A stretch of DNA of 61,837 bases, filler included, from Nemertoderma westbladi (Eukaryota > Animalia > Xenacoelomorpha), in the NCBI GenBank assembly GCA_032718475.1. It is 3 parts of 3 records of this genome, joined end to end, with 100 filler letters (N's around TTAATTAATTAA, not from the genome) between each part and the next. Parts side by side here need not be neighbours in the genome. Positions count along the whole stretch, not along the records: positions 53,071 to 61,837 come from JAUCBJ010005074.1; 2 more parts are not named here. One strand, 5' to 3'. The position numbers were made by a program, and so were the translations under genes. Every line of letters starts with the position of its first letter. Within the stretch, counting starts at the first letter, position 1. Shown here in pieces: positions 1,425 through 59,880 of this stretch. The notes beneath the pieces are model-generated. The model did no database searches and was not told the origin of the DNA. It worked only from the letters and a program-made list of their open reading frames with translations.

Positions 1425-4400
1425 CAACACGTTCGTGGGGCCTTCGCGCAGCACGAGGCCCAGTTATGAGATACAAATTAAAACTGAGCGACTGTATCAC
1501 AAAATCAGTATTTGAGAAATTTACCCACACCACCAATCAATTAAAGAAAGGGGTACAGTACGTGTTCAGCCCTTTTAATCTGCACCCCCCCCCCCCCCCA
1601 CCCTTCCCACCCACCAATACATAACTGTGACATCTACCACCCATGGAAGGGTAGCCCGAACTTATTTCCAATCGCACGTTCAATATGCAAAGCCAGGTGG
1701 TTTATAGGAATATAATAAACGCAGTACTCGTTTTCATTATAAGCCTCGTTGCGTTCGTCCTGTTTTGTATTTAAATATATTTCTTAAACGCAGGCTAGGA
1801 CGATCTTTATAATAATAATAACTAGGGATGCGATCAATGTGTGAAGCCAGGTGGTTTATATAATAATATAGTCAACGCAGTACTCGTCTTCTTTATAAGC
1901 CTCGTTGTGTTCGTCCTGTTTTGTATTTAAATATATTTCCTAAACGCAGACTGACGATCTTTATAATGCGTTCAATAGGCGAAGCCAGGTATGGTTTTGG
2001 TTTATAGGAATATAGTCTACGCAGCACTCTTCCTCATGAGCCCGATAGTGTGGCAATGTAGATGCAGCAGTTGCACGCGACCAGCCGGAAACTCAGAGCA
2101 ATAGGACTACTGCTTGTACAATGGGTGTCAATTTCAATACCGCCGGGCACTGGGTGATAGCAGAGTGAGATTAAAAGACCGAATTATTTCATCCTCGGTT
2201 ACGGTTAGTCCAGTTTGCCCGTAGCGGCAGCGATACCGAAAGTTGAGGTAACAGACAGAGGCAGCATTGGTGGTGAGTTGTTTGATTTCAATTCCAACAC
2301 TTTTCTGGGCAGCTGGGTAGACTCTGGTGGTAGTGGGTACCTGAACTAAGAATGCCAGTCAGCTGGTTAGTCCGCATAACTTCCATGGTTGCAGTTGCCG
2401 AGTCAATGGATGGTTGGTAGGGATAGGCCTAGGCCTATTGCTATTATTGTATTGGCAGATTGGTATGTACATCTACATCTGATTATACCAGTTGTCGGTG
2501 CCGTCGGTCGTACCAATACATAGTCTTTAATTAACATATTTAACCGTTAACAAGAGTAGAAACCGCAAACGAAGAAATTCATTTTCTTCCATCGCTGACA
2601 GGAGCGTAGAAATGCGGTTTAGTACTGTCGTAGTTCAGTACAGGTACCGTACCGGTAGTTCTGTAGTTGGCAGTTGCTACCAGTCCGGTTCTACAGTCTG
2701 ACAACCAACAGTAGGGCGGTACGGCACCAACGGACCCTCTAATCTAATTCAGGATCGCAGTCCAGCACTCCGGAGTCTGCACTGCAGTGCATAGCATGGC
2801 TAATTACTGAATTAGGGCCTACAGAATTAGGCCTGTCCTGAACCACGTACGTACCAGTATACGTGATCTATAATCACTGCACCGGTACCGCGGTACCAGT
2901 CAGCCAGTACCGTAAAACACCGAATACAGTATGGTATTGCAGTATTGCTGTATTGTCTGATTGCAGGATTCCTGATTCAGGGATTGACATTGAGTATAGT
3001 AGGCCTACCGGTACAGGCAGACAGGCCACAATGGTATTACTGCATGCAGTACTGTGTTTCGTAATTTGCTAGAAACCCAGCTGATTTAGTCTCCTAGCAA
3101 CCTGCTGATGTCAAGCGTTATAATTTTGGATAAATAAATTTATTATAACTGTAAGACAGTTACACTGGTGCTGCACGAAGGCCCCAAGCAAATTCAACTT
3201 GGAAAATTTCTAAACTTTTGACAGACTATTTGTGTACCAAGTTTGGTTACATTTCATCGAGGATTGATCGAGTTATTAACGTTCAAAATTGAACACCGCA
3301 AAAAAAGCGACAGAACGACAGAACGACAGGTAGAACCCTGTAATTACAGACCTGTTAGTATCTTAAGTATTGTATCTAAAATTCTAGAACGTTCTGTTTT
3401 TCTACAGCTGGAGGCACATCTTAGTAGGCTAAATCTGATCTATGAACTTCAGTCCGGTTTTCGTAAATCATATTCTACAGACACCTGCCTTATTAACTTA
3501 ACTGATACAATTAGATGTAATAACGCAAAGGGTTTATATACTGGTATGGTAATGTTGGACCTACAAAAGGCTTTCGATACTGTAGATCACGAAATTCTGC
3601 TTGGTAAGTTAGGCCTGATGGGTGTAGGTTCTATAGACTGGTTCAAGTCCTACCTGTCAGACAGAGGTCAAACTGTAGTCATTAGCAAATCGCTGTCTAC
3701 TGTACAAGAGATTACCTGTGGTGTACCGCAAGGTAGTATATTAGGTCCTCTGCTTTTTGTATGCTATGTAAATGATATGATAAGTAGTATAGATCCCGAT
3801 TTTAAACTCATTTTATATGCCGACGACAGTGCTCTTATTTTCTCTCATAAAGATCCTATCCATATTTCCCAAAAGTTAAGTGCAGTTCTAGAATCCTGTA
3901 ATGAGTGGTTGGTTGATAATAAGCTATCCATTCACTACGGTAAAACTGAAAGTATTTTGTTTGGTTCCAAAAGAAAGTTAAAGAAGGTAACTAAGTTTGA
4001 AGTCACTAGTAATGGACATAAGATTGAAAATAAAAAGGAAGTTAAATATTTAGGCGCCACATTGGATAACTGCTTATCAGGAGAAAGTACAGTGAAAAAT
4101 ATTTTCTCGAAAGTTAACAGTAGGCTTAGGTTTCTATACAGAAATAAAAATAGTTTAAACACCGACTCCCGCAAGTTACTTTGCTCTTCTTTAATACAGT
4201 GTCACATGGACTATGCTTGCTCTTCTTGGTATGAAGGCTTAACCAAACAGCTTAAATGTAAATTACAAGTAGCTCAGAATAAAGTAGTACGATTTATTAA
4301 AGACTACAAACCTAGGCACCACCTAACTCCAGATGACTTTTCTGAATCTGGACTACTTAACTTAGATAGTAGAGTTAAGCAGCTACGCCTTAACCATGTG

Positions 4401-10524: not shown

Positions 10525-10610
10525 ATTACTACTGTATATAATAATGGCGCATTTATTTTGTACCCAAATGAAATTCGGGGTTATGTTCAAACGGAAATAA
10601 ATGTGTAATA

Positions 10611-15100: not shown

Positions 15101-15516
15101 TAATTTCGTAATTTGGTAGAAACCCAGCTGATTTCAAGCGTTATAATTTTGGATAAATAAATTTATTATAACTGTAAGACAGTTACACTGGTGCTGCACG
15201 AAGCCCCCAAGCAAATTCAACTTGGAAAAAGTTTGGTTACACTTCATCGAGGATTGATCGAGTTATTAACGTTCAAAATTGAACACCGCAAAAAAAGCGA
15301 CAGAACGACAGAACGACAGGTTGATTAATGGTACCCCTACGCTAAGGCTCACTCACTTCGTGGCTCGCCCCACAACAGAGCAACAGACACACCGATTGAG
15401 TTAGTGGTACCTGTATGCTAAGCTGGCTTACTTTCGTCGCTCGGCCCACAGACACACCGATTGAGTTAGTGGTACCTGTATATGCTAAGCTTGCTTACTT
15501 TCGTCACTCGCCCCAC
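12124..15516 (-). mobile_element. HINE-like element A with element B (13471-15373) nested in its microsatellite
   Basis: An uninterrupted inverted copy of A is at 55621-57131; terminal hairpin TGTAGGC-CACA-GCCTACA at 12124-12141 lies next to GTGGGGC (12147); GCCCCAC at 15510-15516; duplicated head modules at 15374-15516. Confidence 0.65.
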
Positions 15517-17915
15517 AAGCAATCAGTATAGGGGATATTGGTTGGATATACAATAAACACACCAAATACTAACATTCGTATTGGTATTATTTTGTAATTT
15601 TACAACCTATTTTTCCATAATTATTGCTATTTTAATGAATAGTAATAAATAATATGTAAACTAAACAATGATGCGGCCCATTTAATTATGAAACTATTAT
15701 TCACTGCTGGTGTCAATATAACAATAGGGCGGGGGCGGCCTATGTACAGCCCAATATTTAAAGTATAGTGGGATAAAACAAAACTGTGTAAAAATAATTT
15801 ACTATTATCAAAGCTGAAGATATGGGTATGGAGAATGGAGGTATGGAGATATTACTATGCTTTATTGCATATTAGCCCCAATCTCCCTCTTGTCAACACA
15901 AGGTGCTGACGGGACTTTGGGGTAAATATATTAATTATATGTACTTACAATCACTTGTAATTACATTATAAGTATCATATAATACAAAACAAATATTTAA
16001 AGCTTTCAATGTCTTAATACATAATGTAATTTTCTTAAGTATTGTTGCATTTTCTCCAATGGTAAATGACTATTTATCCCAAAAATTCAGAATTTTTACA
16101 AACCTGTAAATTAACCTATTAATTAATTAACCTGTTAGGACGCCACTATAAAGCAAAAATCAGTAGGCCTAATTTAGTAAAGAATATTCCACGCAATTAT
16201 TATTAATTGATCACATAATTAACACACGAAGAATTACAAATATCACTGATTTTATTTCCCTGCCTTAATTATCAGATCAGTAGAGTAACAAAGTCAGACT
16301 CTATGACATCACAAAATTAAAGGAGGAAATGTTATAATAATTAAATACATTACGTCTACATTACTCTGATAAAACGTAACGGGGGGTGGCGGATTTGGGG
16401 TTGGGTGCAACCTTCGCCCGTGTACAACCTTCGCCTGCTTCCAACCTTCGTCCGCGTCCAATCTTCGCCCACAAGGCAATCTTCTTCCGCGAGCAACCAG
16501 CAACCAATAATATTTGTGTTGACAATATTTATGTTGACAGATTTTAGTTACCAATTGAGGGAAAGGAGCAGTGTTATAAACATGAAGTAGTTAGTAATTT
16601 TTTGCGAGATTAGTTGATAATAGCACATTTATATTTACATTCATATTTTGTTATTTTTCATAAAATAACAAAATATCGGGGTAATTAATATAGATGTGGC
16701 ACATCTTTGTTGTTTCTGACACGATGTTACTATTTCTTAGAATTTTCCTGGTAACATATCCTGTCATCCTTACATTCACTTATTTTAGACTGCCCTACCT
16801 GTTTCAAAACCTATAAAAGTTATTCCTCGCAGGAATAACGTATTATTATTTAATGCGAATTCCTGTCCTCTGATAACAAAAATCATTTAGTAAACCTTTG
16901 TGGTTCTAGGTTGTGAATCCCATATTTTTGTTTATAATTAATTAATGACTTGCTACAACATAAGCTTCTGCGTTAATATATTAATTATTACTGAATGTTT
17001 TCACACTAAAAGAGAATAGGATGTCAGGTATCTTGAATGCGATTATGCCTACGTTTGAGAATACATTAATTATGCAAATTAATTAATGTCGATTAATCTT
17101 GTAGTCTATCGTGTTTTCATTTTTACTCTGTTCCTTTTGCGAAACAGGTTTTGGAAGTATTTACAGCAAAACAGAAGAATAGTAACGGATATTACAACTC
17201 CAATAAGTACAAACAGCAACACGTCAATGAGAAAATATTGGAAGAAATTCAGATTGTGAGCAGCAGATCGAAGATGTTGTGAGCCATGCTGGATTACGTG
17301 TTCTGTCCAAAACGTAAATGTTTCTATTGGAGGAACGGGTGTAGATTTCATCAGTTTCGACAAATATTGAGCATTTTTGGAATACGATTCATTCATAAGG
17401 ATCATTTGGATTTTGTTGTAGAATTGTTCACCAGTCAACGTTTTCATGTGACTTATCACACTGGCCATACCCCTTCGTTCTAAATGCACCAAATTATATT
17501 CAGCATCGGTGCCCATTGGCAAACAAAGAATCGGAACCCCGTTATAAATTCCCTCGTAGAGACTGCTGAGACCGCCGTGTGTAACAAACAATCTTGTCGC
17601 TGGATGACCTATTAAATCGTGTTGTGGCAGCCATTCAAGAAAGTGAACATTACTTGGTAAATCTTTTCTGTCGAATCCCTTGATTGCACGACAAAAAACT
17701 TGCTGTTTCACTTTAGAAAATCCAAGCATCAACTCCCTTATAAAATCTTTTGGTAATGATTTCAATATTGATCCTACAGAAAACACAATAATTCCATGCT
17801 CTTTTGAGGAGTCTATGATTTTCATAATATTATAAGGTAAGGGTTTGGGTTTACTCAATTTAAATCCTCCTATATATGCGACATTTGGCATCGATGGTCT
17901 GGGATATTCGAAGAT
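13011..17915 (+). repeat. Copy 2 of the tandem segmental duplication
   Basis: See 974-8220. Confidence 0.93.
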
Positions 17916-18719
17916 TAAATTTGAATGTATGAAAGTGTATTCTGCCTGAGCGAAAGTATCAAACATACTAATACTCGGAAGTATGTTGAGTTCTTGTTTG
18001 ATGGTTTCTCCAACGCTAAGGAATGCGTAATCCCTGAAGATGCTTCCAGTAGTGAAGGCAATGACATTCATGAATCTTTGAAAGAAACTCATATTATCCG
18101 TAAACCCAGTGACTGGTACGGGAATGTAAGACAAAGGTGAAGGAACATTCGCCAAATGATATAATACTGCAGGTTCCATCGGGATCATACCAGGGATGAA
18201 GTTGATATAGGATATCCCTAATTTTTGTGCCATTAAATTGCCACAACCAAACGGCATAATGTTGATCACAGCCATATCCCAAGGCACTTGTTTCAGTTTG
18301 CTAAACATGGTCTCATCAGTTAAGATAAGTCGACACATATCTGAACTAACATCCATTAAATCACTGAAACCACCAGAAAGCAGGATTTCCTTAGTAGATT
18401 TATCTTGGACTTTTTGGTCAAAAAATGATGTTGTAACTTCCTCTGCGCGCCTGATTAAGTCGCTTTCCATGGTACCATTACCTCCATATTTATAAAGCGT
18501 ATAATTCGCATCATCTAATATTTTGAGAGCGTGTCCCACAATCATACCAACATTGTGACCTCGAGCATCTAAAGCCTTTGCCATTTCATGTCCCAAAAGG
18601 TAGTGACTGCGTCCAACTGTTGAAACACCTGGTATCCATATTATAATGTTGGATGATAAATTGCTTTGGATTAGGGTCAGACATACTGTTATTACTAGAG
18701 CTAAACTTGTTTTAGTCAT
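17106..18719 (-). CDS. Membrane-bound UDP-glycosyltransferase paralog, 537 aa, intronless coding region
   Basis: First in-frame ATG at 18719; signal peptide; RSHY; WLPQHDLIGHPATRLFVTHGG signature; transmembrane helix; KMKTR tail. Confidence 0.95.
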   Translation of the reverse strand: MTKTSLALVITVCLTLIQSNLSSNIIIWIPGVSTVGRSHYLLGHEMAKALDARGHNVGMIVGHALKILDDANYTLYKYGGNGTMESDLIRRAEEVTTSFFDQKVQDKSTKEILLSGGFSDLMDVSSDMCRLILTDETMFSKLKQVPWDMAVINIMPFGCGNLMAQKLGISYINFIPGMIPMEPAVLYHLANVPSPLSYIPVPVTGFTDNMSFFQRFMNVIAFTTGSIFRDYAFLSVGETIKQELNILPSISMFDTFAQAEYTFIHSNLIFEYPRPSMPNVAYIGGFKLSKPKPLPYNIMKIIDSSKEHGIIVFSVGSILKSLPKDFIRELMLGFSKVKQQVFCRAIKGFDRKDLPSNVHFLEWLPQHDLIGHPATRLFVTHGGLSSLYEGIYNGVPILCLPMGTDAEYNLVHLERRGMASVISHMKTLTGEQFYNKIQMILMNESYSKNAQYLSKLMKSTPVPPIETFTFWTEHVIQHGSQHLRSAAHNLNFFQYFLIDVLLFVLIGVVISVTILLFCCKYFQNLFRKRNRVKMKTR

Positions 18720-19559
18720 TTTATAAATTAATAGTAAAATACACAATCATCTTTTTAGTATAAAAAGTATTAATAGGAACATAATTATCCATATCCTATA
18801 CCATCAATTATGGCTGGCTAGCTACTATACTTCGCTAATATTTACTTTCTTGTCACCTTTGACCAGTGACCACCAGTTAGGTAATTAATTACCACTGAAA
18901 TATCGACCTTGAATTTTTTGTAACGCTTTATACACATTTAATTCTGGTTCTTTCTATGTTTATCCACATTTAAACCATTATTGTTTGATTCCAGCAATAA
19001 GCAGCCAGTCAATGTATTAAGACTAAAACGCCTTAAAGAGGAAAAGAGGAGGAAATGTGTCCTGAGGTTGGGGTTAGCAACATCTATTAGTATGCTGGTC
19101 CCTATCGTACACCAATGTTATGTACAGATCAAAATTTAAATGAGAAGAAATCACAACATACAAATTAAACTGTAGGTAGAGCCTTTTCCCATGAGAAGAA
19201 ATCTCACCCCTTTTTAAACAATCGAGGGTTTTGTCTGATCTCAATTGCAGCAAAGTCATTCAATGATTCATTATATTTTGTTTAATGAGTTTTATGTACC
19301 CAGTGTCACGTTCTCGCCTTTTTACGAACTGTTGTCAAAAATATATTGTCCATATAGTTTATTTCCAAATTTATGTATTTCTGTTCCCCGCACCCTATTA
19401 TGGCCTATGTATGTAAGAGTTTATATGTGAAAAACAAAAATTGTGGTTTCGTACAATGCAAAATTATAATTGCGGATAAACTGACGTATGTGTCTTATAA
19501 AAGTAAAAGTAAATTTTCTTCGGTCGCTAGGCCAGGGATTACGCACTAAGTCTGACGAC

Positions 19560-23216: not shown

Positions 23217-23316
23217 NNNNNNNNNNNNNNNNNNNNNNNNNNNNNNNNNNNNNNNNNNNNTTAATTAATTAANNNNNNNNNNNNNNNNNNNNNNNNNNNN
23301 NNNNNNNNNNNNNNNN
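23217..23316. other. Artificial scaffold spacer N44-TTAATTAATTAA-N44
   Basis: Exactly 100 nt with a six-frame stop word; identical construct at 52971-53070. Confidence 0.97.
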
Positions 23317-26300
23317 GGATCTAAAGCCACGTGGAGTGGTAGGTAATATGTCCTGTCCGTATTTGGTTCGTCAACCGGTAGCTCCACGGCCCATCCCTTC
23401 TCAATGTACTTCTTGATGGTTCTATGGATGTACTCGTTTTTCTCGGGGCTCCGCTTCAGTGTCTGTTTCAACTTGCGAAGCCTCGTAAGCACCATCCCTT
23501 TATTATCGGGCAACGGTAGCTTCGGTAGCTTCCATACCATTCCTATGGTATACCGTCCCTCTTTGCACATCATGGACTCGTCTACGCTCTGTTGAGCCTG
23601 TTTGTCCTCCACCGAGGTCCCTACCCCGGTCTCTTTTAATCCCTCAAAATCTTGTTTGAGCAGTCTTTTAAGCTGCTCCTCTGCTCTCTCATCACCTATT
23701 TCCTGCATAGTTCCTGCGAACATGCATCCTGATGTCTCCGACATCCTAAATGGTATCTTACTCTTGATTGGGCCACTCAGTGTCCACCCGAATGGCGTCA
23801 ATATCGCCACTGGGTCACTCTCCCTGTCTTCGCCGAAGACCGTTTGCATCCTCTCGTGGGCCGTCGGGCAGTCCATGCCTACTATGATGGATACTTTCCT
23901 GACGTCCACCTCCGGGATTGAGAAGTCAATATTATCCAGGAACTTATATTGCTCGACCTCGATGTTAGTTGGTCGCCTGGCATTGATATTGATTGACTCT
24001 ATCACTTGGATGGGGTCGATAGTTGCCCCGTAGTTACATCCCGGTGCGACTGCTGCAATCGCGCACCGTCCGGTTCTCATCTCCAGGACCTCGTCTTTGC
24101 TCGAGATGGTTGTTACTGCCATTCTACTTGCCCTCGTCCTCAATCCTATTTCTTCGGCCACCCAATCCTCAATTAAAGTGAAGGCAGCTCCGCTATCGAC
24201 CAGCATCAGAGTGGTTACTGATCGATTGCCTTCCCCAATCACTCGCACCGGTACTACCCCAAGTAGCACCGTTCCTCTCTTCTTCGCCCCTACTGTGCTC
24301 GTCGCCATTGTTTGGCCTTTATTTCGACGGTACTTGACCGGCGTCTCCTCGCATTGCCTTGCTCGATGTCCACCCATCACACATCGCGAGCAGATCTCAT
24401 TTTTGTCCGCGTATACTACCTGATCCTCTCTGGGTAATGCTTGCCAGTAGCTGCAGTTCATGGTTAGATGTTTTGCATTTGTATGTAGCTGGCATTTAGC
24501 CTCTGGGTCGTAGCCGTCCTTGTACAGTGCATCGCGTATCGCAACTGCATTTGTACTAAAGTCCCTACTGTTTTTATAGTTTGTGCTCGGCCTACTGGAT
24601 GTATTGGGGTTATGTTTGTTCGTGTTGTTGGTTTTCCCCTGTCCGGCCTTACTCTCTGCTAACTGTGGACTCGCAGTCCCCTGCGTCGCTGCGTATGGCA
24701 GTGATTGTCTGAGCTTTGGTAATGAATTCGACGTATTGTGCTCCGGTTTCGGTCGATGGTAGTCCGTCTTCGGTCCCTTTCCCAGACTGTCTTCGCTATA
24801 GACTGGGTCGGTTATTAGTTCTGCTTCGTAGCTTAGGAAGCTAGACATTTCCTCTAGACCCGGTTCCGCACCCTTTTTGTCTCTAGTGGAGAAAGCGACT
24901 CTTCTCCACTTGTTACGCAGCCATATCGGCAGTGCCTGCGCTATCGTGGTGATGTTGTTGGAGGCGTTGAGCTCATATGGTGCGTCCAACGTCTTTAACA
25001 CGATCAGCGCCTTTTCAACTTTGTTAGCAAACGTCTTAATGCTAACGGGATTATCCTGTAGGCCACCCGTTGTTATGCCTCTCAGGGTTTGCCTGATGAT
25101 CTTGGCTGGGTGCCCGTATTCCCTGTCCAGTGCCCGCCATGCTGTCGTGAAGCCCCCTTCTATACCCTGGTATTGCCTCACGATGTCGTATGCTGGGCCT
25201 CCCGTGTATACTTGCAGATACTTTAGGCACTCCGCCTGCGTCAAATTTTTTGTTAGTATCTCGTTGCTATACATGCGCCGAAACTGAAGATATTCTTCCG
25301 GCCTACTCCCATCGAATTTGAATGGTTCCACGGGTGGTAACTCGATCCTTGTTTTTAACGCATCGATTAACGTGGCCATCCCCACTGCTTGCGCCTCTAA
25401 TGGGTTCGATGGATGTTGCATGGTTTCCCTTGCTTGGTGCGGTCCACCCGTTCTATTCTCTGCTCTCCTCTGACTTGGGTATATCATTGGGGGTAGCGGC
25501 CCCCTCCATATTTCTGTGTCACACGATTTGTTTTCGTCCAAGGGATTCGTTCTCGCTTCTATCGGGGTATATTGTTGATATTGCGATGGGGGAATGTCAC
25601 CCTGTCCCCCCCCCACCAATATGTTTGGTACTGGGGTTGATGTTAATATATTGGGGCCCATGCATTTATCCGCAATAATTCCCCCCTCCCCTGGGTATAT
25701 GTTATAACCTTTGGTGCTGTAGTCATACTGCTGCACTGGTACCGGTATAGGCCTATCAGCTTCTGGCCTACCTACCGGAATGTATTCCGCGACTTCCGGG
25801 TCTAATCCCGTTGTCCGCGCTATCCTATCGCCTACGGTGCTCCTGTCAGCATGGCCTACGGTATGTGCAGTAAGGCCTACAGTATGTCCTACAGTCTGTA
25901 TGTGCTCGGAATCGAAGTTTATTCTTCTCGAATAGTCCTCCCCGCGGCTACCGTATTCTCGATCGGTAGGTACATCCCGACGGAAAGTTTCCCTTCGACC
26001 CCCTCTGCTGCTCTCTTCTTCGCGTCGGTACGTCACGTACCTCTCTCTCGGCGCGTAGTGCGCCTCGTCGGGTCGCGTCTCTCCGGGACGACGGCAATCT
26101 CCCGTAGTTCGACCCCACCGACTCTCTTCTTCCATCTCAATCACCGACGGCTCACTATCCGTCCTCACTCTTCTATCGTTCGCGGCGATGCTTCTCCTAT
26201 CATCTTCTCCTCTTCTTCCCTCAGTGTAGTATTCCCGCTCGTGAGATCTCTCGTTGACCTCCCGGTTAAACTCCACTGTTCTTCTTCTCTCTTCTGATCG

Positions 26301-29022
26301 GGCTTGACACTCCGTCCGCCCTCTCGCGGCGTCAACCTGCATCTCTCTGCTCGATCGCCCGCCGCTGGGGACACTCGCGGTCCCCCTATTACTTTCCGTC
26401 GCCGTGTGTTGCGGTTTACCTACTTCGGCCCGCGCATTATCCGCCGACGCCTGTGGGACACTCTCTGCCCCCCCCCCTCTCGTCACTAACTTCTCGCGGT
26501 GGGGTGCTCGTAGCCCCCCCCCACCCGCCACTTCTAACTTCGGTACCTCTTACTACACTCCTGTACCCTTCTTGTGGGGCGCTCTCCGCCCCCCCCTTCT
26601 CGCCGCTAATCTCACGTGGTGGGGCGCTCGGAGCCCCCCCCCACTCGCCACATCTAACTTCACTATTTCCTACCTCGTCTCTACACTTTTCTCCCGTCGA
26701 CACAACATTTACATTGGGGCTGGGTCCGCTTACCCCCGCCCCTCTCTCCACTACTACCTGGCCTACCAGGCCTACTTCGGGTTGTCTCAACCCCGCCGAT
26801 TCCGGCCTACTAACTACGAGGCCTACCAGGCCTACCTCGGGTTGGCCCAACCCCGCTACTTCCGCCCTACTGACTACGTGGCCTACCAGGCCCACCTCGG
26901 GTTGGCTCAACCCCGCCGTCTCCGGTCTACCCACTGCGTGGCCTACCAGGCTCGCCCCGGGTTGACTCAACCCCGCCGTCTCCGGCCTACTTACTACGTG
27001 GCCTACCAGGCCCTCACCCGCCGGGCTATGTGCGTTGGACACGTCTACATTAATAATACCACTGTGATTATCCTGCGCACCAAAGCTAGAAACAATATGT
27101 TGCGTTATAACAGTATTCGGATTATTTTGTAAAATCGAATTCGGGTTATTATTTAAATTATTTGGATCATTTTGTGAAATCGAATTCGGATTATTACTTA
27201 AATTATTTGGACTATTCTGTATAACTACATCACTAGAATTACTCTGTACGTCAATATTAGAATCGTTCTGATTTAAAATAATATTATTACTATTAGGTAA
27301 CGTATTTCCTGCAATAAAAATTTGGTTAGAGTCGTCCAATACAGTATTATTAATATTAGCGTTATCTACTGTATTAGTGTTATTACCCCCCCCGCTCGTA
27401 CGATCACACCAGTTTCGTGTCCGTAGTGTGGTCCCTGTCAGTGGAGTATTAATAAACGTATCCACGACCCCCGGCTCCTCTGAAATGTTCGAGCCTGCCC
27501 CTCTCTCAGACACTCCTGCCCGCGCCCGTTCCACCTCGCGCGCGTGTACAGCCGTATACTCTACGAATTTGTCTCGCTGTTTCTCTAACTCTATTCGGCC
27601 ACTCTCCACTCTTGTTACTTTCTCCTTTGACTCTCGTTTTTCCTGCTCGATCAATTCCAGCTCTCTCCTAATCCCCTCTCTTCTTCTCGCCTTACGCTCT
27701 TTGCGTTCACTTTCCTCTCTCGCCTCACGTTTCTCGCGTTCACTTTCCTCTCTCGCCTCTCGTTTCTCGCGTTCCGCCTCGCGTTTCTCCTCGCGTTCCC
27801 TTCGTTCCCTTCTCTCTCTCGCCTCGCGTTCCTCGCGTTCTCTCTCGCGTTCCGCCTCGCGTTTCTCGCGTTCTGCTTCGCGTTTCTCGCGTTCTGCCTC
27901 GCGTTCTCTCTCGCGTTCCCTCTCTTCCCTCAACTCTATCTCCTCACACTCCCTAAGGTTCCTCGCGGCCCTTTCGCCCCTCTCCCTCAACTCTTTAATC
28001 GACACCGTTTCCCTCTCTAGCATCACTCTCCCCTCCTCTAGCCGTCTACCTAGTTCTCTATTCGCCTCTACCACTACATTGAAACGGTGTCTAGCCTCTA
28101 TCTCTCTCACCCGTCTTTCTTTTTCGGAGGATGTAACAGACTTATCGGTTGCGACGGATTCCCTCCGCCTTCCCGACCCGCTGGCTCTCCCCCCCTTTCC
28201 GGAACTCCCTCCGACCGACGAGACCGAACCCGCGGGGTCAACCTCGGGTTCGCCCTCCTCTGGTCTGTTCCAACCTACTGTCTTTATACCCCGGGCATCG
28301 ATTAAGTATGGCCCTAAGTACACTACCCTAGGTTCTATACTCCCATACCGCCATGAGTCATACAGTTCCTCGGCGACCCAAGTCGCTCTCTCCTCGGCCA
28401 ATCCTCTCTGCCCGAAGCGCACTAGATAATATAAATGTCTATTCGACTCACCTAGTCCTAGGTTCAGTTTTACCTCGTCTATCCTCTTCCCTTCTCTGGC
28501 CTCCTTTATCAGTCTCCGGGTCGCGTTGTAGGCCCGTCGAAGTCGCTCGGAAACCCCGACGTCCTCGTCGCCGACCCCTCGTCCGTCTCTCCGGGTTCGA
28601 CGTCGTACCGGCGGCCCCACCGTCGCCGTTCCGGTGGGCCGTGCGTCGCCCTCGGCCTGCGGTTGGCCGGCGACATCGGTGTCGACATCCCCGTCGTCTC
28701 TCCGGGTCCGGCGTCGTACCGTCGGCCCCACCGTCGCCGTCTCGGTGGGCCGTTCGTCGCCCTCGGCCTGTGGCTGGCCCGCGACGTCGGTATCGACATC
28801 CCCGCTGTGTGTCGACTCGTCTCTCTCTTCCTCGAGCCCGATCTCTCTATCCTCCGGCTCGATCTCTGGTTCCAGGCGGTCCCCCTCTACTCGAATCCCC
28901 GGTTCGCCCGGTACGGATGGCTCCGGTGTCGTGGGCGTATATCGCCTGGTCGCGGCCTCGCGGATCGTTAGATCGTCGTCGTCCGGGGTCCGCGTGGGTG
29001 TCACTTCACCCGACTCGCTCAT
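23317..29022 (-). CDS. BEL gag-pol polyprotein, split into two ORFs by one extra base in a C10 run (26468-26477)
   Basis: ATG at 29022; the sister repeat unit reads EKGGAESAPQ, and deleting one base gives ERGGAESVPQ, which fuses the two ORFs. Confidence 0.75.
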
Positions 29023-29127
29023 CTTTTGTCTGTTGGTGGCTGGTGGTATCTGAGTCTATTAGGCTAGGGCAGCAGTTGTTATTTAGTTACTGTGACGGGA
29101 TCATCCGGAGATGAACCCGATTTATCC

Positions 29128-29818: not shown

Positions 29819-32419
29819 TACGATATAATTCTAATGTTTTTTTTTTACTACTCTAGAATATCAATTACGCGTAATGATAAAACAAGATGGGGAGTTTTAA
29901 AAGCTCAACTAAATAGTAATTAATATTCTAGAATAAAGACAAAAACATTAGAATTCTCAAAATAAACACCTTAGAATTTTAATAATATCTTCGAGAATTT
30001 TTGTTCAAATTAAAACGGTTTTCAGATTCAGAATATGGAGATGAAGCCCAGTTCTAATGATATCTAGATTACACTCACTCCAAAGGCGGGAAATAAAGCC
30101 GACGGATATGATTAAATATTGCGAAATAGCACAGAAATTCAGAAATCCGGCTCCGCCAGCAGTAAGATAAGTTGTCGAACTATCAGTATACCAAATTTCC
30201 TAGCATTTGAGTGAAATTTGTAAACATTAGGGGGGGGGGGGGGGTGGGGGTCCGATAAAAAAAGGTTGTTGTATGAAGTGTGATGGTGTAAACAAAAAAT
30301 TCATATTCGTATGTATACATTGGGTTTGTATAATAAACCATTATAATATGAGAGTGACTGGACGATGGTTAGCTGGTTGTATGTAAAACAGATATCTCTA
30401 TTTATTGAGTTCAGTTAATATCAAAGACAAACAAAGTTATATTACTTTAATATAATTCAAATTCCAATTTAAAGTAAAGTAACTTACCGTACCGGTATTA
30501 ACCCCACTGTGACAGATAGGTCGAATTTTTAACAGTAAATCAGATTCTAAAACTTTAACATTTTCTACGAAATAATTTGTTCAAAATGATGTTTGAGATA
30601 TGTATTTGTTCAGGAAGTCGCCACTTGGTGGTGTATATGACTATGTCGTTTAGTAACCCTATTATATGGGTTTGTCTAGGGGGGGTATTGGTTGCCTGTG
30701 TGTTACTGGCTATGGAACGCCCAGCTAGATCCTCACATATTTCCCTACTTGCTCCACTTCCTGGGAAGCTGTGAGCCAAGGAAAGGTTGCCTGGTGCAGC
30801 TCTCGGCTGGCATTGGAATTCCCAATAACTGCTCAAACTCAATTTTATATCACTAGAGTTATCAATCAGTCCGTAACTCTGTTACTGCTATTCAGCTATT
30901 GAATATAAATCATTTCAGTATAGATTTATGTAAATAGTTTACCCTGTTATATTATTATCAATTTACCGCCTTTCTTATGGCTTTTCTAACTAAGACTGAC
31001 TGTTAGGGACAGGACAGGTATAATTAATTAATTTATGGTATAATGTCGTTCAGCATTAGCATTAGCATTCCTGCTTAACACAAAATACCCAGTGCGATGT
31101 TAATTTCCTTTTAATCATGAATGAGGCTTATCGTTAATGAGTCGGTATTTTGCGTGGAAAGTCCACATTTTTATTCCACATTACTGTTAGAGTAAAAGTA
31201 TATCAAAAAGTATATAAAAATTAATTATGCCAATTTTTTTCCTTTAGCAATATGGATTTTACATAGTTCACCCCAACAAGGTAAATATTGGTGGGATTTT
31301 CCGCAAATTTGGTGTAGAGACTGAAGTTTTATCAGTTTATCATTTTCTCTGGTACAATATTAGGAATATTACTGTATAAAGGCAGTTTGTCCTAACACTG
31401 TAACAAAACAAGGGGTTGTAACCAGCCCGTCAGATTTGTCGACGCCAAAAATCCTTGTTCCCAAAAATTTTACCTGCTATATCATTAACTATTGTTGTTT
31501 TTATACTTACTTAGCCTACAAAGCAATTCAAAAACAGTATCAAAGAATATTTTCACATACAAAGTACTGTATTTGGAAATTCAACTGTGAACTTAAACTG
31601 TTTATGCAAAGTAAACCCACGTCCCAAATTTCAAAACATCCGTGAAGAATAACTACTGTAGTTGTAACTATTGTAGTACATCGCGTAGGTTTATTGTAGT
31701 AAATTTAGTTACAATAATTACTGCCGCTGAGATACATCACAGCAGATATACAGTACTGCAGTACAGCAGTAGGTAGGTTAGGCGTTAGAAAATCAAGTGT
31801 TGGGAAAACAGATGAAAGGAAGCAACCAAAATAATAAACTAAAGTTAGTTAGCACGTGTCGCAAAATTATACTGAGTAGCAAGTGTTGAAATCAGTAAAA
31901 ATACTACCTGAGTAGTATCAGGACTCTTTTAGCTGAAAATTGTAAAGCTTAATTAAATTTAATAATTCAGGGGGAATTATTATTTTGATTCTTTACTTGA
32001 TTTCTGGAACAAATTAAACTATAAAACTTGTTTTGATAAAATACTAACATATTAATAGTTTAAATTTATTTAGTAAATTAGTATAACAAGTTAAGTAAAG
32101 TTTACTTGCGAATTAAACTTAAATTATGAAATGCGTGTGTCTCATTTTATTAATTAATCTTTACATTTTGATTGTAAATCTTATTTATTCAATAAGATTG
32201 ATTACCTGAAAACTTACAATGATTGGTACTACAGTACTTGTATGTGCATCTGGACATGGATAAGTCACATGGGTCGATAGATAGCAATATTAACTCGTTG
32301 GGACATTGGCTCAATTGTACATGATGCCTTATTTGGTATAATTTTATTGTGTGATAATTGGAGTTTGAACAGATTGCTGGACACGACATCCCACACACAA
32401 TAAACTAGTCTAATACGAC

Positions 32420-33200
32420 ATTCCGTTCAGCCGTTATTCAGTTCCACAAATTCACTCATGTCAGCATGTCAACAGACGACACCAGTACAACTGACTACAC
32501 TAACAGACTAATGTGCGTGCATGTGTGTGTGCCAGTACAGCAGTACCGGTACATGCTCTTCCCATTTCTGTATTTGAAAGTCAGGAAGTGCAGAAGTGGG
32601 TGCGAGCGCGAGGTCTACTGCAGTACAGCAGTACCGGTACTGTCTATTTCCTCATTTCAGTAATCGACTATCAACTAACTGACTAGGCATTGCCAGACAT
32701 CCGGTTCGACTTGGTTTCCGCACCTTGACTACCGGACTACAGCATATTTAACTACTGAACTACCGGCAGACCGGTACAGTTCTGCAGTTGGACATTCTGA
32801 TACTGATAGTAGGCCTACCAGAATACAGGAATAGTGATCCATACTGCCATACCCCAGTACCCAGTGGCCTGTACCTGTGTACAGACCTATCTCCAAAAGC
32901 AGCAATACAGCAATAATATTTTACTTAGGTATACCATATACCGGTAAGTAACTGCCGGGCCGGTCACCGGTTGCCGGTAATTCATTCAATTTTAATTCAA
33001 GGTTTCAAGTACCCGTACTGCCGTACCTAATTACCGGGGTGTCGGTTACCAGGTTACTGCATTAGGCCTACTGCATTTAGGTTTAGATGCAAATTCCGTT
33101 TTCTTCGAAAAATATTTAGTTTAAATAATTATTTACAATCAACTCGTTTTGGCTTAGGCAAATCATTTAAAAATAATTTATCTATCGCTTCAAATCAAAC
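32420..33200 (+). promoter_or_regulatory. Probable promoter/5' UTR region of the kinase, saturated with micro-duplications; possible UTR intron
   Basis: Less AT-rich and CpG-containing; CAGGAAGTG ETS-like word at 32582; donor-like GGTAAGT at 32943; acceptor-like TTAG near 33157. Confidence 0.45.
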
Positions 33201-34361
33201 ATGTCTGATGATCAAATAGCCATTCCTGAATCCGGCCGAAAGCTGTTCGCCAGCCTCTCCAAGGATAAATTCCCTGACCTCTCGGGCCACAACAACTGGC
33301 TCTCTAAATGCCTTGTCGAGAACAACGACATCTACTTCAAACTTTTCGACAAGAAAACAAAAAATGGTTTTCCCTTCCTCGACGCCATAAAGACGGGTAT
33401 CCAGAACGCCGGACATCCGTTTATAATGACGGTGGGCTGCGTTGCGGGCGACGAGGAGAGCTACACCGAGTTCGCGGATCTCTTCGATCCCGTAATCGAT
33501 AAACGCCACGGCGGATACAGCAAGGACCGCAAACACGTGACGGACCTCGACTACACGAAGCTCAAGGGGGGCGACCTGGACCCCAAGTACGTGCTATCGT
33601 CCCGTGTACGCACAGGACGCAGCATCCGGGGCCTGGCGCTGCCGCCGTTTACCAACAAGGAGGACCGCAAGAAAGTCGAGAAGATAGTAGTCGACGCTTT
33701 GGCGTCTCTAGACGGGGAATTCAAAGGGAAGTATTACTCGTTGGAGACGATGAGTGAAGCTGATCAGGATAAACTCATCGACGATCACTTCCTCTTCGAT
33801 AAGCCGGTTTCTCCGCTGCTTCTCAGCTCCAACATGGAGCGGGATTGGCCGTCGGCTCGGGGGATCTGGCATAACGACGAGAAGTCCTTCCTAGTGTGGG
33901 TCAACGAGGAGGATCACACCCGGGTTATATCCATGCAGAAGGACGGGAACATGAAGGAAGTCTTCCGGAGGTTCTGCGAAGGTCTCCAGAAGGTAGAGGC
34001 GGCCGTGAAGAAGGCCGGATCCGGGTTCATGTGGAACGAGCATCTGGGCTACGTGCTCACGTGTCCCAGCAACCTCGGGACCGGACTGCGAGGCGGAGTC
34101 CACGTAAAGATCCCGCACGTCTCAGCCCACGCCGAGTTCGAGAACGTGCTGACCCGTCTCCGTCTACAGAAGCGCGGCACCGGAGGGGTGGACACCAAGG
34201 CGGAGGGCGGGATATTCGATATCTCCAACTCGGATCGGCTGGGATTCTCCGAGGTTCAGCTTGTTCAGTTCGTCGTCGACGGGGTCAACCTCCTCGTCGA
34301 CATGGAGAAACGTCTGGAGGCCGGTAAGGATATCGCCGATCTGATACCCGCACAGAAGTAG
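33201..34361 (+). CDS. CK: Creatine kinase (cytoplasmic-type phosphagen kinase), 386 aa, intronless coding region
   Basis: [18 protein letters not shown] specificity loop, [36 protein letters not shown] and RGTGGVDT; no mitochondrial presequence; single domain. Confidence 0.93.
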
Positions 34362-52970: not shown

Positions 52971-53070
52971 NNNNNNNNNNNNNNNNNNNNNNNNNNNNNN
53001 NNNNNNNNNNNNNNTTAATTAATTAANNNNNNNNNNNNNNNNNNNNNNNNNNNNNNNNNNNNNNNNNNNN
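52971..53070. other. Artificial scaffold spacer
   Basis: N44-TTAATTAATTAA-N44. Confidence 0.97.
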
Positions 53071-54460: not shown

Positions 54461-54695
54461 TTACTATATCTGGATCAGCAGGCAGCAGCAGTAAGTTAAT
54501 TGGGATGACGGACTGGGCTGGGTATGAAATTTCTACGGAGCCCCTAAAGGGACATGGGTTTCCCCCTTTTTTTAAATCAGGCCCAGAGATACTAAGTCAG
54601 GGCCAGAGATACTAAGTCCGGCCCGGAAATACTATCTCAGGCCCGGAGATACTAAGTCCGTCCCAGAGATAGTAAGTCTGCGCCAGAGATAATAA

Positions 54696-55051
54696 CAATG
54701 TGTTGGCAAGCTGTATTTTTCGAGGTGTTTGTTATTATACATTTATTATAGGAAGTGATCTAGGGGTCTTTACCTCGAATGATAAGTTTTATTTTACCGA
54801 AAATAACTAATCGAATCCGACACCACGCCGATGAGACCCAGTAAGGTCGAAACGCGTACGTGGTTTGGAGAGATATGAGATATTAATTTCAAGAAAAAAT
54901 TACGCGATTCCTAAATTTGTACACTACCCGGTTAAAAAAGTACGCATGTGATGGGATTAGTCCTACAATTGCGCCAATAAAACGATAAGTTATTTTCGGT
55001 AAAATAAAACTTATCATTCGAGGTAAAGACCCCTAGATCACTTCCTATAAT
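54696..55051 (+). mobile_element. 356-bp insertion, Penelope-like or retrozyme-like remnant
   Basis: 11-bp TSD AGAGATAATAA (54685-54695, 55052-55062); perfect 65-bp inverted repeat 54744-54808 / 54988-55052 enclosing a hammerhead motif. Confidence 0.7.
54816..54869 (+). ncRNA. Minimal type I hammerhead ribozyme (U4C variant)
   Basis: Stem I ACCACG/CGTGGT, core CCGATGA, stem II GACC-CAGTAA-GGTC, GAAA, palindromic ACGCGT stem III, GUA cleavage triplet ending at 54858. Confidence 0.8.
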
Positions 55052-55620
55052 AGAGATAATAAGGCCGACCCTGAGATATTATCTCAGGCCCGGAGATACT
55101 AAGTCCGGCCTGGAGATAATAAGTCCGGCCCGGAGATACTATCTCAGGCTCGGACATACTAAGTCCGGCCCGGAGATACTAAGATCGGCCCAGAGATACT
55201 ATCTCAGGCCCGGAGATACTAAGTCCGGCCAGGAGATACTATCTCAGGTCCGGAGATACTAAGTCCGGCCTGGAGATACTATCTCAAGCCCAGAGTACTG
55301 TACTATCTCAGGTCCGGAGATACTAAGCCCAGCCAGGAGATACCAAGTCCGGCCCGGAGATACTATCTCAGACCCTGAGATAGAGTCTCTAGCCTGGAGG
55401 GAAATTCAATTTGAGTATTAAGTTGGACTGGCAAACTGGGGTGGGGTGGTGGTTTACTGGCTGACTGGCTAATCGCCTCCAGTCCATCACCAGTCACCCA
55501 GTAGTCATTCTGTCGTTTTCACTAGCTGCGTTACTGATTTTACTTTAACGCTACCTTACTCCTATCTCACAAATTGAAATGTGAAACTCATGTTTCCGTG
55601 TTTCTTGTTCCCGTCAAGAT

Positions 55621-57131
55621 GTGGGGCGAGCGACGAAAGTAAGCGAGCTTAGCATACAGGTACCACTAACTCAATCGGGGTGTGCCTGTCGTTCTGTCGT
55701 GTCCAATTTTAAACGTTAATAAATCAGCCAAATGTTAATGAAATTTAACCAAACTTGGTACACATGTAGTCTGGCCAAAGTTTAGAAATTTTTCAAGTTG
55801 AATTTTCGCGTGGCCTTCGAGAAGCTAAGATAATAGCAGTTAATTAGTCAATTAAGTTGATTAGGGTAACAACATCAATTTTAACCTGCCTCATTAAAGG
55901 ATATTAATTATTTTCTAGTATAAGATTTAAATAATTATACTTAAAAGTTATACAGCTGTAATCCCCATACAACATTCCATTATAGTTTTTAATTAGTTCA
56001 AGTGATTTGCTTTAATAAATGTGTCTTTAATTGATCTAAACGTAATTAAAGCGGCACAATTATTGAGTACAAATTTAATCCTTCCCATTATTGGTCAATA
56101 TAGTCTCTGCGGGGTGTAGAGCTGCTAGCTGGCTGGGAGATGTTTGTGTAGCCTTACCAGGGCAGAGGGGAATTGTTCTGTAATAGGCAGCCAGTAGTAT
56201 TGCTATAGCAACACAGACATAACTCCAACCACACTGCCTGTATTTCAATTCCTATTGACTCTATATTATAAATGTTGTATTACTTACTATCTCAGGTGAC
56301 AGAAGATATAATGACATAAATTCTCATGGCTGTTGTGGGCTTATATCTGAAATAGTTTATTCCGCAATATATTTGTCTGGTTATTTTTTAATTGAATTTT
56401 TGCAAAGTAGTAAAATTAATGTTCTTAAAAATAATATTATTATTTTATATGTAACCAAGGAAATTAACTACATATTTAAGAGCAGCTTTAAGAGTGTACA
56501 TTGATTTAATATTATTTCAATACCCAAATTACTACATCGGCATACGATGCGTTGGCGTTGTATAACACATCTCCACATAGATGTATCAGCAGTTACTCGC
56601 AGTTTCGAAACTTCGCATAGGTATAACTGTATAAAGATCGTCAGTCTTGGTTTAGGAAAAATATTTTAATGCAAAACAGGACGAGCAACGAGCGCAACGA
56701 GGCATATAATGAAGACCAGTACTGCGTAGACTATATTCCTGTAAACCATACCTGGCTTCGCCTATTGAAGGCATCGGTAGTTATAAAGATCGTCCGTCAG
56801 TCTGCGTTTAGGAAATATGTTTAAATACAAAACAGGACGAGCACAACGACGTTTATAATAATGAAGACGAGTACTGCCTACTGCGTTGAAGGCATCGGTA
56901 GTTATAAATTACTGGTGGGTGGGAAGGTTGGGGGGGGGGGGGTGTGGGGGGGGCGGGTGCAGATTAAAAGGGGCGAACACGTACTGTCCCCCTTTCTTTG
57001 ATTGAGTGGTGGTGTGGGTAAATTTCTCAAAACCTGATTTGTGATACAGTCGCTCAATTTTAATCTGTATCTGTTAACTGAGCCTCGTCCTGAGCGATGG
57101 CCCCACGAACGTGTCTGTACTTGTAGAACAG
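55621..57131 (+). mobile_element. Uninterrupted HINE-like element A
   Basis: Reverse complement of 12140-13470 plus 15374-15450; GTGGGGC at 55621, GCCCCAC at 57100-57106, imperfect hairpin at 57115-57131. Confidence 0.7.
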
Positions 57132-57332
57132 CCATTGATTTGGAATTGAGAACCCAGTTAGCTGATTGGCTGCAATTTGTTTCTGTTGATTGCTGTGTCA
57201 GTGCTACAATGTCTATGAACCTGTTCTGTGTTTTATCTCCGGGCCGGACTTAGTATCTTAGGGCCTGAGATAGTATCTCCGGGCCGGACTTAGTATCTCA
57301 GGGCCTGAGATAGTATCTCCAGGCCGGACTTA

Positions 57333-57921
57333 CTACTACTACTAGGATCGGCATGCTGCATTGCAGCTGCATTTTTAAGAATGCTGTGCCGGCTTATCGA
57401 CAAAATTGCACCGCCACAACTCCCTATCACCCATGACATTTGCTAGATCATCCGCATCTTCAAGGCCAGTGTCCTTTAAGATGCGTCTCAAGAAAGTCAT
57501 GGGCTGTCCACCATGCTTATTCACTCCATGAGGCTGCCAAAGTACAAGATTATGCACTGGCTGGTCCTCACGGCGAAAGCAATGTCCTGCAAAGCGGAGG
57601 CGATTTTGTTCTAGTGTCAAGCTTGGGGAAACCAATGAGACAGCTCCAATGTTATATAGTGTCTGGTTGGAGTATGTGTGCATTGTACTTGACACAATGA
57701 ACCCGGCGTAGCATTCTTGTGAATGTGCCATCCAGAGATTTGGTGTCCTCAGCAGTTAGAGCCCAGCATGGACTCCCATAGAGGAGTACTGGAACTACTG
57801 CTGCTCTAAATAATCGGACCTTAAGTTTCCGATTAATTGAGATAGTATACCATCTTTTGAGCTTATGCTCATCCGATCAGAGACTTGCTGAGGGCTTTCA
57901 AAGTTAACTGTCAAAATTTTG
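57333..57921 (-). mobile_element. RTE LINE fragment with internal deletion
   Basis: Same family as 5204-5786; (TAG)n tail; GGCCGGACTTA on both sides (57322-57332, 57922-57932). Confidence 0.92.
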
Positions 57922-58170
57922 GGCCGGACTTAGAAAAAAAAGGGGAACCTATGTCCCTTTAGGGGCTCCGTAAATTTCTGTAGGAGAAGTAATGGATTAT
58001 TTATATTCCTAGCTAGCCAGTGGCATCGCTCTTTGCCTGTCTGTTTCTGCAGATAGGGGGGGGGGGGGGGGGGGGGAACTGGAAACTGGACGCAATAAAA
58101 ATTCATCCCTCTCCAGTGGAAATTCGACGCAAATAACAGCTGATTACTCTAAAAAATAAAACTGTAACCT

Positions 58171-58585
58171 GTGGGGCGAGCCACGAAGTGAGTGAGCCTT
58201 AGCGTAGTGGTACCATTAATCAACCTGTCGTTCTGTCGTTCTGTCGTTCTGTCGTTCTGTCGTTCTGTCGCGTTTTTTTTCAGTATTTTATTTTAAACGT
58301 TAATAACTCGGCCAATCCTTGATGAAATCTATCCAAACTTGGTACACATGTTGTTTGGCAAAAGTTTGAAAATTTTCCAAGTAGAATTTGCGTGGGGCCT
58401 TCGTGCAGCATCAGTGTAACTGTTATTGCAGTTATAATAAATTTATTTATCCAAATTTAAAATGCGTTAAATTATTATTACTGTAGGATAAATCAGCTGG
58501 TTTTCTGACAAATTTTGCAATTCTGCATGTACCATGTGTACCGGTACTGTCAGGCTGTACTCAATCCCTGAATCGAGAATCCTGC
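58171..58585 (+). mobile_element. HINE-like element B 5' part
   Basis: B head, (CTGTCGTT)5-6, and inverted similarity to 2960-3330. Confidence 0.7.
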
Positions 58586-58826
58586 TAGGGTGCATTTATA
58601 GTCAGATGCCGTCCGATCCGATCCGATCCGATCCGATGCATTTCGGCAATTATTGTAGCTACAACTGTCAGACTGCAGACTGTACAAGCCTAGCTGCTTA
58701 GGCTAGGCCTACTTCTAACACTGAACGCAGTCTGGTTGTATGACTATTGCTGTATTGGCCTATTGCTATTGTCTGATTGTATATGGCATGGCAGTACTGC
58801 AGTATGCAGGTATGGCAGTACACAGT

Positions 58827-59650
58827 ATGGGATCATTCGTAGCTCAGTAGCTCTGTAGCTGACTGTGGTGTTCAGAAGGAAATCGGACGCGCGTTGGATG
58901 TCCTGGAATGGAGTCTACCGACCAACTTGCAGGGTGAGGCTGTCCCTCTGCAGCTCTGATCCTGGGCGGTGGAGACTGTGCTGATCAGGATGGCGGAAAC
59001 GGGAAGCGGGAAGACCGGGGCATTCTGTATCCCGATACTACAGCTGGTCCATGAAACTCTACGGTACAAACTCCGAGATGGAAAACTCGATGGGAAATCG
59101 GGGGGAAGAACTAGGCCTACGAAATTTCAGTTGAACCCATTCGATAGAGCGATAGAGGTGACCAGTTGGCCATCTCCCCGGACGGATTGCTGTGTCATGC
59201 GCGTGGCCAGAGGAGTTGGCACGGTACCCGGACGACTAAAGGAATAGTCGGATCCGGTCGTTACTATTCAGCTATTACGAGGCGACGGTAAAGGACGAGG
59301 TGCGAGGGGCCATGTCGGGTTGGTTGGAGCACCGGAAGCGCGACACTCGATATCGGGACTGATAAAAATAGTTTTGGCTTCGGAGGAAACGGTAAGAAGT
59401 GCTTCGGGCGGCGTTTTGACGACTATGGACAACCATACGGACTAGGCGACGTGATCGGTTATCGGATCGATCTGGATGTGGGCACAATTGGGTACCGGTA
59501 CAGTAAAAACGGAAGTGATCTCGGGAAAGCTTTCGACAGTTCGAGATTCCCGCTAATTTACGCAAACTCCCGTTATTCCTGTATTCCCGCAGTCTGTGCT
59601 GTCGTATCTTTAAAGAATGCTGAAATTATGTTTATTTTCGCCGAATTTAT
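58827..59650 (+). pseudogene. DDX1: DDX1 DEAD-box helicase 5' fragment (Q motif, motif I, SPRY domain), frameshifted, no introns
   Basis: EWSLPTNLQ, PLILGGGD, ETGSGKTGAF, LNPFDRG, WHGTRTTKG, CRVGWST, GTDKNSFGFGG.GKK, SKNGSDLG.AFEIP, LKNAE. A SPRY domain after motif I is diagnostic of DDX1. Confidence 0.9.
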
Positions 59651-59699
59651 CCGTTTATCTGCGCATCTTCTTTCCGGGTACACCATTGTATCCCGGGCG

Positions 59700-59880
59700 C
59701 CGTTTTGTACCTACAATGTACCAAGTTGTGTAACTTTTGTACCCATTGTACCAAGTTGTGTACCTTTTGTACTTATTATGTACCAAGTTGTGTACCTTTT
59801 ACACCTACTATGTACCAAGTTGCGTACATTTTGTACCTATTATGTAACAGTTGTGTACGGTCTTGTACCTATTTATGTTT
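59700..59880. repeat. Degenerate tandem repeat, about 30 bp
   Basis: TGTACCAAGTTGTGTACCTTTTGTACCTA-like units, about 5 copies. Confidence 0.85.

Follow-up and report, generated by a model that had tools for sequence, protein, structure and literature searches.

Eight-base-pair insertion units in dead coding DNA and gene leaders of Nemertoderma westbladi, likely excision scars of a cut-and-paste DNA transposon

The 61,837 nucleotides of Nemertoderma westbladi DNA analysed here, referred to as the window, contain short units in which a 5-mer is repeated around the trinucleotide CAG or CTG. In this study, we show that these units are inherited true insertions, each made up of five duplicated bases and at most three bases of CAG or CTG. 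With a probability of roughly 0.7, they are the repair scars of a cut-and-paste DNA transposon with a 5-bp target duplication and CAG ends, which inserts and later excises. A piece of the DDX1 gene serves by its dead reading frame as a ruler for the insertion process.

Positions 58827..59640 (plus strand) hold a 5' fragment of DDX1 disabled by insertions. The origin from DDX1, claimed in the initial annotation, is backed by Pfam DEAD and SPRY domains, by a match to the human DDX1 SPRY structure 4xw3 (E 2.8e-18) and by a frameshift-aware, motif-blind alignment to P0003, a eukaryotic DDX1. The piece comprises the start codon, the Q motif, motif I and the whole SPRY insert, about 245 codons or the 5' third of the gene. 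As is characteristic of DDX1, motif I (AETGSGKT) is followed by SPRY inserted in the first helicase domain. Homology stops at about 59640, short of a complete frame through motifs II-VI, and frameshifts persist, features at odds with a functional DDX1. Processed pseudogenes retain the 3' end with poly(A) and are truncated at the 5' end; here the 5' third is kept and a 32-bp minisatellite follows at 59703. In an intron-loss test for such an origin, the intact parent gene was colinear and intron-free over the same part in the DNA-like runs X3 and X4 (see below). The dynamic programming alignment to P0003 recovered inserts of 8, 7, 6 and 8 letters at 58949, 59301, 59494 and 59536, with larger or shifted gaps at the other unit sites. 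The aligned frame contains no nonsense codon, in agreement with the earlier view that nonsense changes contribute little to the decay. Once the nine named units are deleted, about 200 codons (VLIRMAETGSGKT ... KLPLFP) read through in one frame without a stop. The proposal that footprint removal restores the protein thus holds for this frame; it does not hold for the entire protein, as two non-footprint frameshifts are left, after GGGD (~58977) and after LFP (~59590), and only the 5' third is present.

All motifs listed previously were found at the positions given for them, except GGTAC-C-GGTAC, which starts at 59491 and not at 59492. The units within the fragment, which have no strand assignment, begin with the double unit TAGCT-CAG-TAGCT-CTG-TAGCT at 58840..58860 (units at 58840 and 58848); in the public runs a single unit stands here in the majority copy, and loose contig ends fall at 58847 in X3 and X4. 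The unit CTCTG-CAG-CTCTG (+8; 58946..58958) is recovered by the P0003 alignment, and the intact gene is 12 letters shorter over 58857-59071. A net +4 relative to the intact gene at 58977..58993, including a degenerate GAT-CAG-GAT, is a frameshift absent from the initial annotation and was located by the P0003 alignment, the intact contig and unit removal. At 59142..59157 (+8; 70 letters in the intact gene and 78 in the window) the plain 8-bp duplication described earlier, CGATAGAG x2, is present and is equally readable as CGATA-GAG-CGATA, one base away from a CAG unit, so that it may be either a mutated unit or a simple duplication. The unit CTATT-CAG-CTATT (+8; 59264..59276) and the truncated unit CGAGG-TG-CGAGG (+7; 59296..59307) together account for 65 letters in the intact gene against 80 in the window, the latter unit being recovered by the P0003 alignment as well. 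The truncated unit GGTAC-C-GGTAC (+6; 59491..59501) is evident from the P0003 alignment and from the intact contig, whose loose end after 59478 lacks it. TTCGA-CAG-TTCGA (+8; 59532..59544) is recovered by the P0003 alignment, and TATTC-CTG-TATTC (+8; 59574..59586) by unit removal, the alignment recovering 7 of its letters. Upstream of the DDX1 start, footprint-dense, leader-like DNA (58640..58826, plus strand) contains four perfect units and truncated ones, as found by motif scan.

Contigs from four public runs (X1-X4; three samples from three studies, one of them maybe the source of the window) were aligned to 58640-59700. Intact DDX1 is present as a low-depth contig in X2, X3 and X4, is colinear with the fragment and differs from it by about 15% (69 substitutions over three aligned pieces). 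It falls short of the window by 12, 8 and 15 letters at the stretches where the latter holds 8+4, 8 and 8+7, and its loose end is without the 6-bp unit; the units are therefore derived insertions. The alignment to the functional gene, suggested in the initial annotation as a check, hereby supports its reading of the units as true insertions: motif-blind alignment recovers most of them, and the intact contig is without the lengths tested. The same annotation named assembly artefact as a way to be wrong; the units recur in high-depth contigs from three samples and are not assembly errors. Third codon positions account for 23 of the 32 listed differences between fragment and intact contig (40 of 51 rows covered), a bias that may reflect past function or decay of GC-rich third positions. 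In the intact DDX1 (X2 record 12, loose end before 58857) a unit ATTAT-CAG-ATTAT overlaps the gene's own start codon. The first ~620 nt of intact DDX1 and the coding sequences of creatine kinase (33201-34361) and of both UGT genes (7413-9077; 17106-18746) are intron-free. This suggests an intron-poor animal genome, even though leader introns exist in creatine kinase and are alternatively spliced.

The initial annotation regarded the fragment as a single decayed pseudogene. Sequencing depth points elsewhere: unit-carrying contigs reach depths of 855-1174 in X3 and 834-944 in X4, as compared to 19.9 and 14.4 for intact DDX1, and the creatine kinase locus has a depth of 21-28 in X3. Probably the fragment belongs to an apparently transcribed repeat with some 30-60 copies, a rough estimate, depth not being a copy number. 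In the majority copy the first unit, at 58839-58846, is missing, a bare 5-bp duplication stands at 59257, and gap accounting places an extra +8 near 58820-58834; low-depth contigs of X1 show net insertions of +8 and +16. On the left, the carrier ends with a terminus common to other repeats in the window. An end module of this interspersed repeat (terminus TGTGGGGCGAG, 8-bp microsatellite, core) occupies 58170..58590 on the minus strand, as deduced from terminus copies and alignment, adjoins an interrupted host repeat at 58169 and is the probable end of the unit carrying the DDX1 piece. The terminus TGTGGGGCGAG has nine copies with at most one mismatch in the window, plus one unrelated match. 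The microsatellite (CTGTCGTT)n lies at 58225-58270, near this end; CTGTCGTT joins a 5-mer to CTG, and a scar may have seeded it. To the right, high-depth contigs extend more than 500 letters beyond 59700, and within them the far end of the carrier was not found.

One run, X2, is labelled 'DNA?' and no run bearing the stretch is recorded as RNA; it shows GT..AG joints and a depth of 20,000-130,000 over the creatine kinase open reading frame (ORF) with none in most upstream bins, and from spliced joints and depth alone we read it as RNA-like. Its repeat contigs have depths of 671-804 and keep the units: by gap accounting at most 8 of the 53 spanned unit letters can be missing from record 11, and none are missing from record 14, which retains its two units. 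The units are therefore not spliced out, which answers the question of RNA retention raised in the initial annotation. With X2 read as RNA, the repeat family, not necessarily the window's own copy, appears to be transcribed. A second hot spot, found by motif scan and alignment at 2280..3070 (no strand assigned), contains eight perfect units and lies inside a repeat that is duplicated at 13011-15324 and has the end module in common. These repeat copies (974-3334 and 13011-15324) are 1.9% apart, and the adjoining UGT-containing segments 7%. Each copy has a footprint-rich, non-coding interior, which may be another captured leader.

The units are far more frequent than expected by chance. Six perfect X5-CAG/CTG-X5 units are found in 58827-59620 (794 bp), where 0.025 are expected and 200 Markov simulations gave a maximum of 1; the whole window contains 60 against 1.75 expected. 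A scan of repeat lengths singles out k=5 (60 vs 2), as compared to k=3 (34 vs 36), k=4 (16 vs 8) and k=6 (5 vs 1.3). With tandem arrays masked, CAG (33) and CTG (22) top all trinucleotide middles, the next reaching 10. The spectrum of middles, with each event counted once, was compared to 300 simulations in three hot spots that had been selected from the data beforehand. CAG/CTG middles occur in 38 events vs 0.3 expected, CA/TG/CG in 8 vs 1.0 and C/G in 9 vs 2.3, numbers reached in 0/300 simulations each. Empty middles (8 vs 4.3; reached in 22/300) give a weak signal, and middles of four and five letters (9 vs 5.9 and 3 vs 6.2) are hardly or not at all in excess. Control DNA, too, has about twice the Markov expectation of 5-mer repeats around an empty or 1-base middle, which weakens the case for the shortest variants. 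A mild rise in other 3-base middles (9 vs 3.9) is perhaps due to mutated units. The middle holds constant over 37 different 5-mers, both CAG and CTG are found on transcribed strands, and the middles differ in 3/3 independent stacked double hits outside the microsatellite. The target 5-mer is palindromic in composition (H-A-N-T-D) without symmetrising: among 47 independent sites, position 2 is A in 23/47 and position 4 is T in 26/47, position 1 is G in 5/47 and position 5 is C in 2/47. Repeats of 2 bases (k=2) are not enriched in the hot spots. The motifs TAGGCCTA (7 vs 0.05) and TACCGGTA (6 vs 0.5) are also enriched there and may represent another type of scar, at TA sites. Comparison of eight pairs of repeat copies within the window revealed no clean X5-CWG-X5 indel except one 8-bp microsatellite step.

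Units also cluster in front of another gene. At 32400..33060 (plus strand) the motif scan found 16 perfect units in 661 bp, 156-778 bases before the creatine kinase start. GT..AG spliced joints in X2 place this hot spot in the 5' non-coding exons of the leader and in the first intron, and X3 contigs show it to be polymorphic. No perfect unit lies in the ORFs of creatine kinase and of the two UGT genes (4.4 kb), or in the 1.5 kb upstream of either UGT ORF; the promoter rule is thus not universal, or the UGT transcripts start further away. Comparison of the creatine kinase locus to X2 and X3 revealed 16 indels, and 5 of the 12 listed are exact units: those at 31758, 32499 and 33044 are present in the window only, those at 32410 and 32644 in X3 only. 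The remaining listed indels are one bare 5-bp duplication and six unrelated changes. One X3 contig of 1,138 nt shows four units vs six substitutions, its 44 gap letters summing exactly. At this locus, units differ between samples nearly as often as single letters do, and loose contig ends from other loci in the public runs also show X5-CAG/CTG-X5 units. The creatine kinase is at most 74% identical to any of the matches listed and forms a long branch without a supported sister; a second paralogue in X2 and X3 is about 85% identical over short pieces.

How might such units arise? We propose that a transposase acting as a dimer makes cuts 5 nt apart in the two strands of a palindromic H-A-N-T-D target, whereby five bases would be duplicated on insertion. 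Excision would then cut 3 nt inside the CAG...CTG ends of the element, as in Sleeping Beauty. The two CAG overhangs could anneal with one A:A mismatch, to be resolved to CAG or CTG, and trimming of the overhangs would leave CA, TG, CG, C, G or nothing. Such a transposon would prefer open DNA at transcription starts and hit the same 5-mers again; selection would clear its scars from working ORFs, with those in leaders, introns and dead coding DNA surviving. The DDX1 fragment, sitting in a repeat of presumably tens of copies, would be kept a target by its apparent transcription. We see even odds for a further-reaching proposal: the animal may host an undescribed DDE transposon, or a domesticated enzyme, whose 5-bp target is palindromic and whose donor cuts lie 3 nt inside the ends, as in Tc1. 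It would seek out transcription starts and move in and out at such a rate that, across the genome, 8-bp scars match point mutation as a source of variation in promoters and 5' leaders.

The footprint reading of the initial annotation, which named no mechanism beyond this word, is well supported. The window was searched for an element that could leave such footprints. No filled site of the form X5-CAG-TIR...TIR-CTG-X5 was found in the 61.8 kb, only chance-level or minisatellite pairs, and the search of the window turned up no element combining a 5-bp target site duplication (TSD) with a DD34E/D transposase or terminal inverted repeats (TIRs). Pfam scans detected no transposase domain in 57 frames (7 + 50); the 50 come from 59 listed frames of at least 75 aa, the nine omitted including known LINE pieces and antisense frames. 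Exact-pattern scans of metagenome contigs gave 0 loci. Since the dead coding DNA bears at least nine scars but no resident element, residence times would have to be very short. The sole CAG-ended inverted repeat seen, an element at ~54526-57980, contains subrepeats of 20 bp, has its CAG at the right end and is interrupted by other repeats; it is flanked by TA (Tc1-like) rather than by a 5-bp duplication. The inverted repeats 10609-11557 and 54744-55052 were rejected, being without CAG ends and without 5-bp duplications. Furthermore, the window contains abundant LINE reverse transcriptases and a BEL/Pao-type retroelement frame (DUF1759, aspartyl protease) at 23265-29055, after an 872-aa Glu/Arg-rich open frame. 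The gaps 23217-23316 and 52971-53070 each consist of 44 N, TTAATTAATTAA and 44 N and look like artificial scaffold linkers, so that the joins across them may not be real.

The absence of filled sites from the window, even from dead coding DNA, would also be expected if there were no resident element at all and a host or domesticated nuclease or integrase cut open promoter DNA with a 5-nt stagger, a short CAG/CTG oligomer being added during repair or by abortive integration. The very high local rate at the creatine kinase locus and the concentration in 5' leaders fit such an enzyme too. Nevertheless, we consider it unlikely, since the overhangs of a transposon yield just such an unvarying middle, with truncations anchored at its ends, and since, by our estimate, short-lived elements numbering a few hundred in a large genome would seldom be met within 62 kb. 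The truncation series G/TG/CTG and C/CA/CAG is predicted likewise by abortive target-primed reverse transcription, in which a LINE or SINE with a 3' end CTG copies one to three bases and duplicates its target, and LINE reverse transcriptases are plentiful in the window. LINE target duplications vary in length, in contrast to the duplication here, which is fixed at 5 bp at a palindromic target; together with the hard limit of three bases and little or no excess at four to five, this makes a LINE or SINE origin improbable.

In leader DNA of low complexity, imperfect 8-bp duplications could also come from replication slippage or templated end-joining; the unit at 59142 can be read as a plain duplication, and the (CTGTCGTT)n array at 58225 did grow by repetition. 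As a general explanation it is largely refuted and highly improbable, given that the middle is the same whatever the flank, is missing from the ancestral sequence and differs between stacked units in 3/3 cases. Even less credible is the idea that the units are assembly artefacts, or are removed in RNA so that the gene works. The stop-free conserved frame after unit removal and the third-position bias (23/32 listed differences to the intact gene) would agree with it, but high-depth contigs of three samples contain the units, records 11 (at most 8/53 unit letters missing) and 14 (both units) of the RNA-like X2 retain them, the fragment stops at about codon 245, and a separate intact DDX1 contig of 2,347 nt exists. 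Somatic programmed excision was set aside as well: at the creatine kinase locus 0/37 listed substitution rows fall on a middle base, and in the duplicated repeat the middle is identical at 8/8 sites in common.

If excision scars are the correct reading, regulatory DNA of this lineage evolves largely by stereotyped 8-bp insertions, and a mobile element with few resident copies writes promoter and leader variation. A 5-bp duplication around element-derived CAG/CTG predicts a transposase that mixes target stagger and donor cut in an unreported way, and the unit geometry provides an exact search pattern for the element. The scars are polarised and countable, and could therefore be used to date copies, to type populations and to mark open chromatin in a poorly known animal.

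Known hAT elements leave flank-derived palindromic bases on excision, and hAT/Transib relatives cut via flank hairpins. The middle in the window differs from such a footprint, being constant across the 37 5-mers and showing no copying of the flank. After Transib/RAG-type cutting the donor keeps no bases of the element, whereas the window scars hold CAG/CTG. Partial similarities to both groups exist: hAT5 of the hAT group, compared here by its description only, has a 5-bp TSD in an animal (PMC12730594), and the CMCT clade including Transib is described with CA..TG termini and TSDs of 2-5 bp (PMC12730594), which CAG..CTG ends and a 5-bp duplication fit. Excision of Muta1 is reported as mostly precise (PMC5225508).

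The carrier repeat has parallels of its own. Multicopy capture of gene fragments in animals is known from Pack-TIRs (PMC8277862), and like these and the Helentron derivatives HINE/DINE-1 (PMC4067079) the carrier belongs to multicopy, often transcribed repeats with host gene fragments; as in HINE/DINE-1, a microsatellite lies near one end (PMC4067079). In contrast to the TT/T-rich target of HINE/Helentron elements, the bases beyond the carrier terminus, in the assumed orientation, are not T-rich, and a test for subTIR and 3' stem-loop gave a weak fold (-2.1 kcal/mol) and no inverted partner to the right. We leave the carrier unclassified, because the T-rich target feature fails and the other end was not found. 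With respect to location, the (ACAGT)n repeat of Trichoplax adhaerens, 54% of which is reported within 1 kb upstream of genes (PMC2871265), resembles the units in that short CAG/CTG-containing sequences crowd gene starts; it is a microsatellite with a 5-bp period, for which that account offers no transposon origin, whereas the window units have an 8-bp step and accept any 5-mer.

Within the part of the literature covered, we found no account of an X5-CWG-X5 scar and no described family that combines a 5-bp TSD with a Tc1-like inside cut. The middles match those of Sleeping Beauty, whose footprints are described as TA-(CAG, CTG, CA, TG, C, G, CG, none)-TA (10.1101/659086) and arise via 3-nt staggered cuts and end joining (10.1101/659086; PMC6943129). 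As in this Tc1-mariner element, CAG/CTG stands between duplicated targets in the window and is accompanied by a minor series of CA, TG, CG, C, G and none. Unlike Tc1/mariner, the duplication is a variable 5-mer, H-A-N-T-D, instead of TA, and unlike the cell-culture result reported for Sleeping Beauty, the window units are a natural, polymorphic record of an element that would be known from its scars alone. The feature is real and represents a known process with a new geometry.
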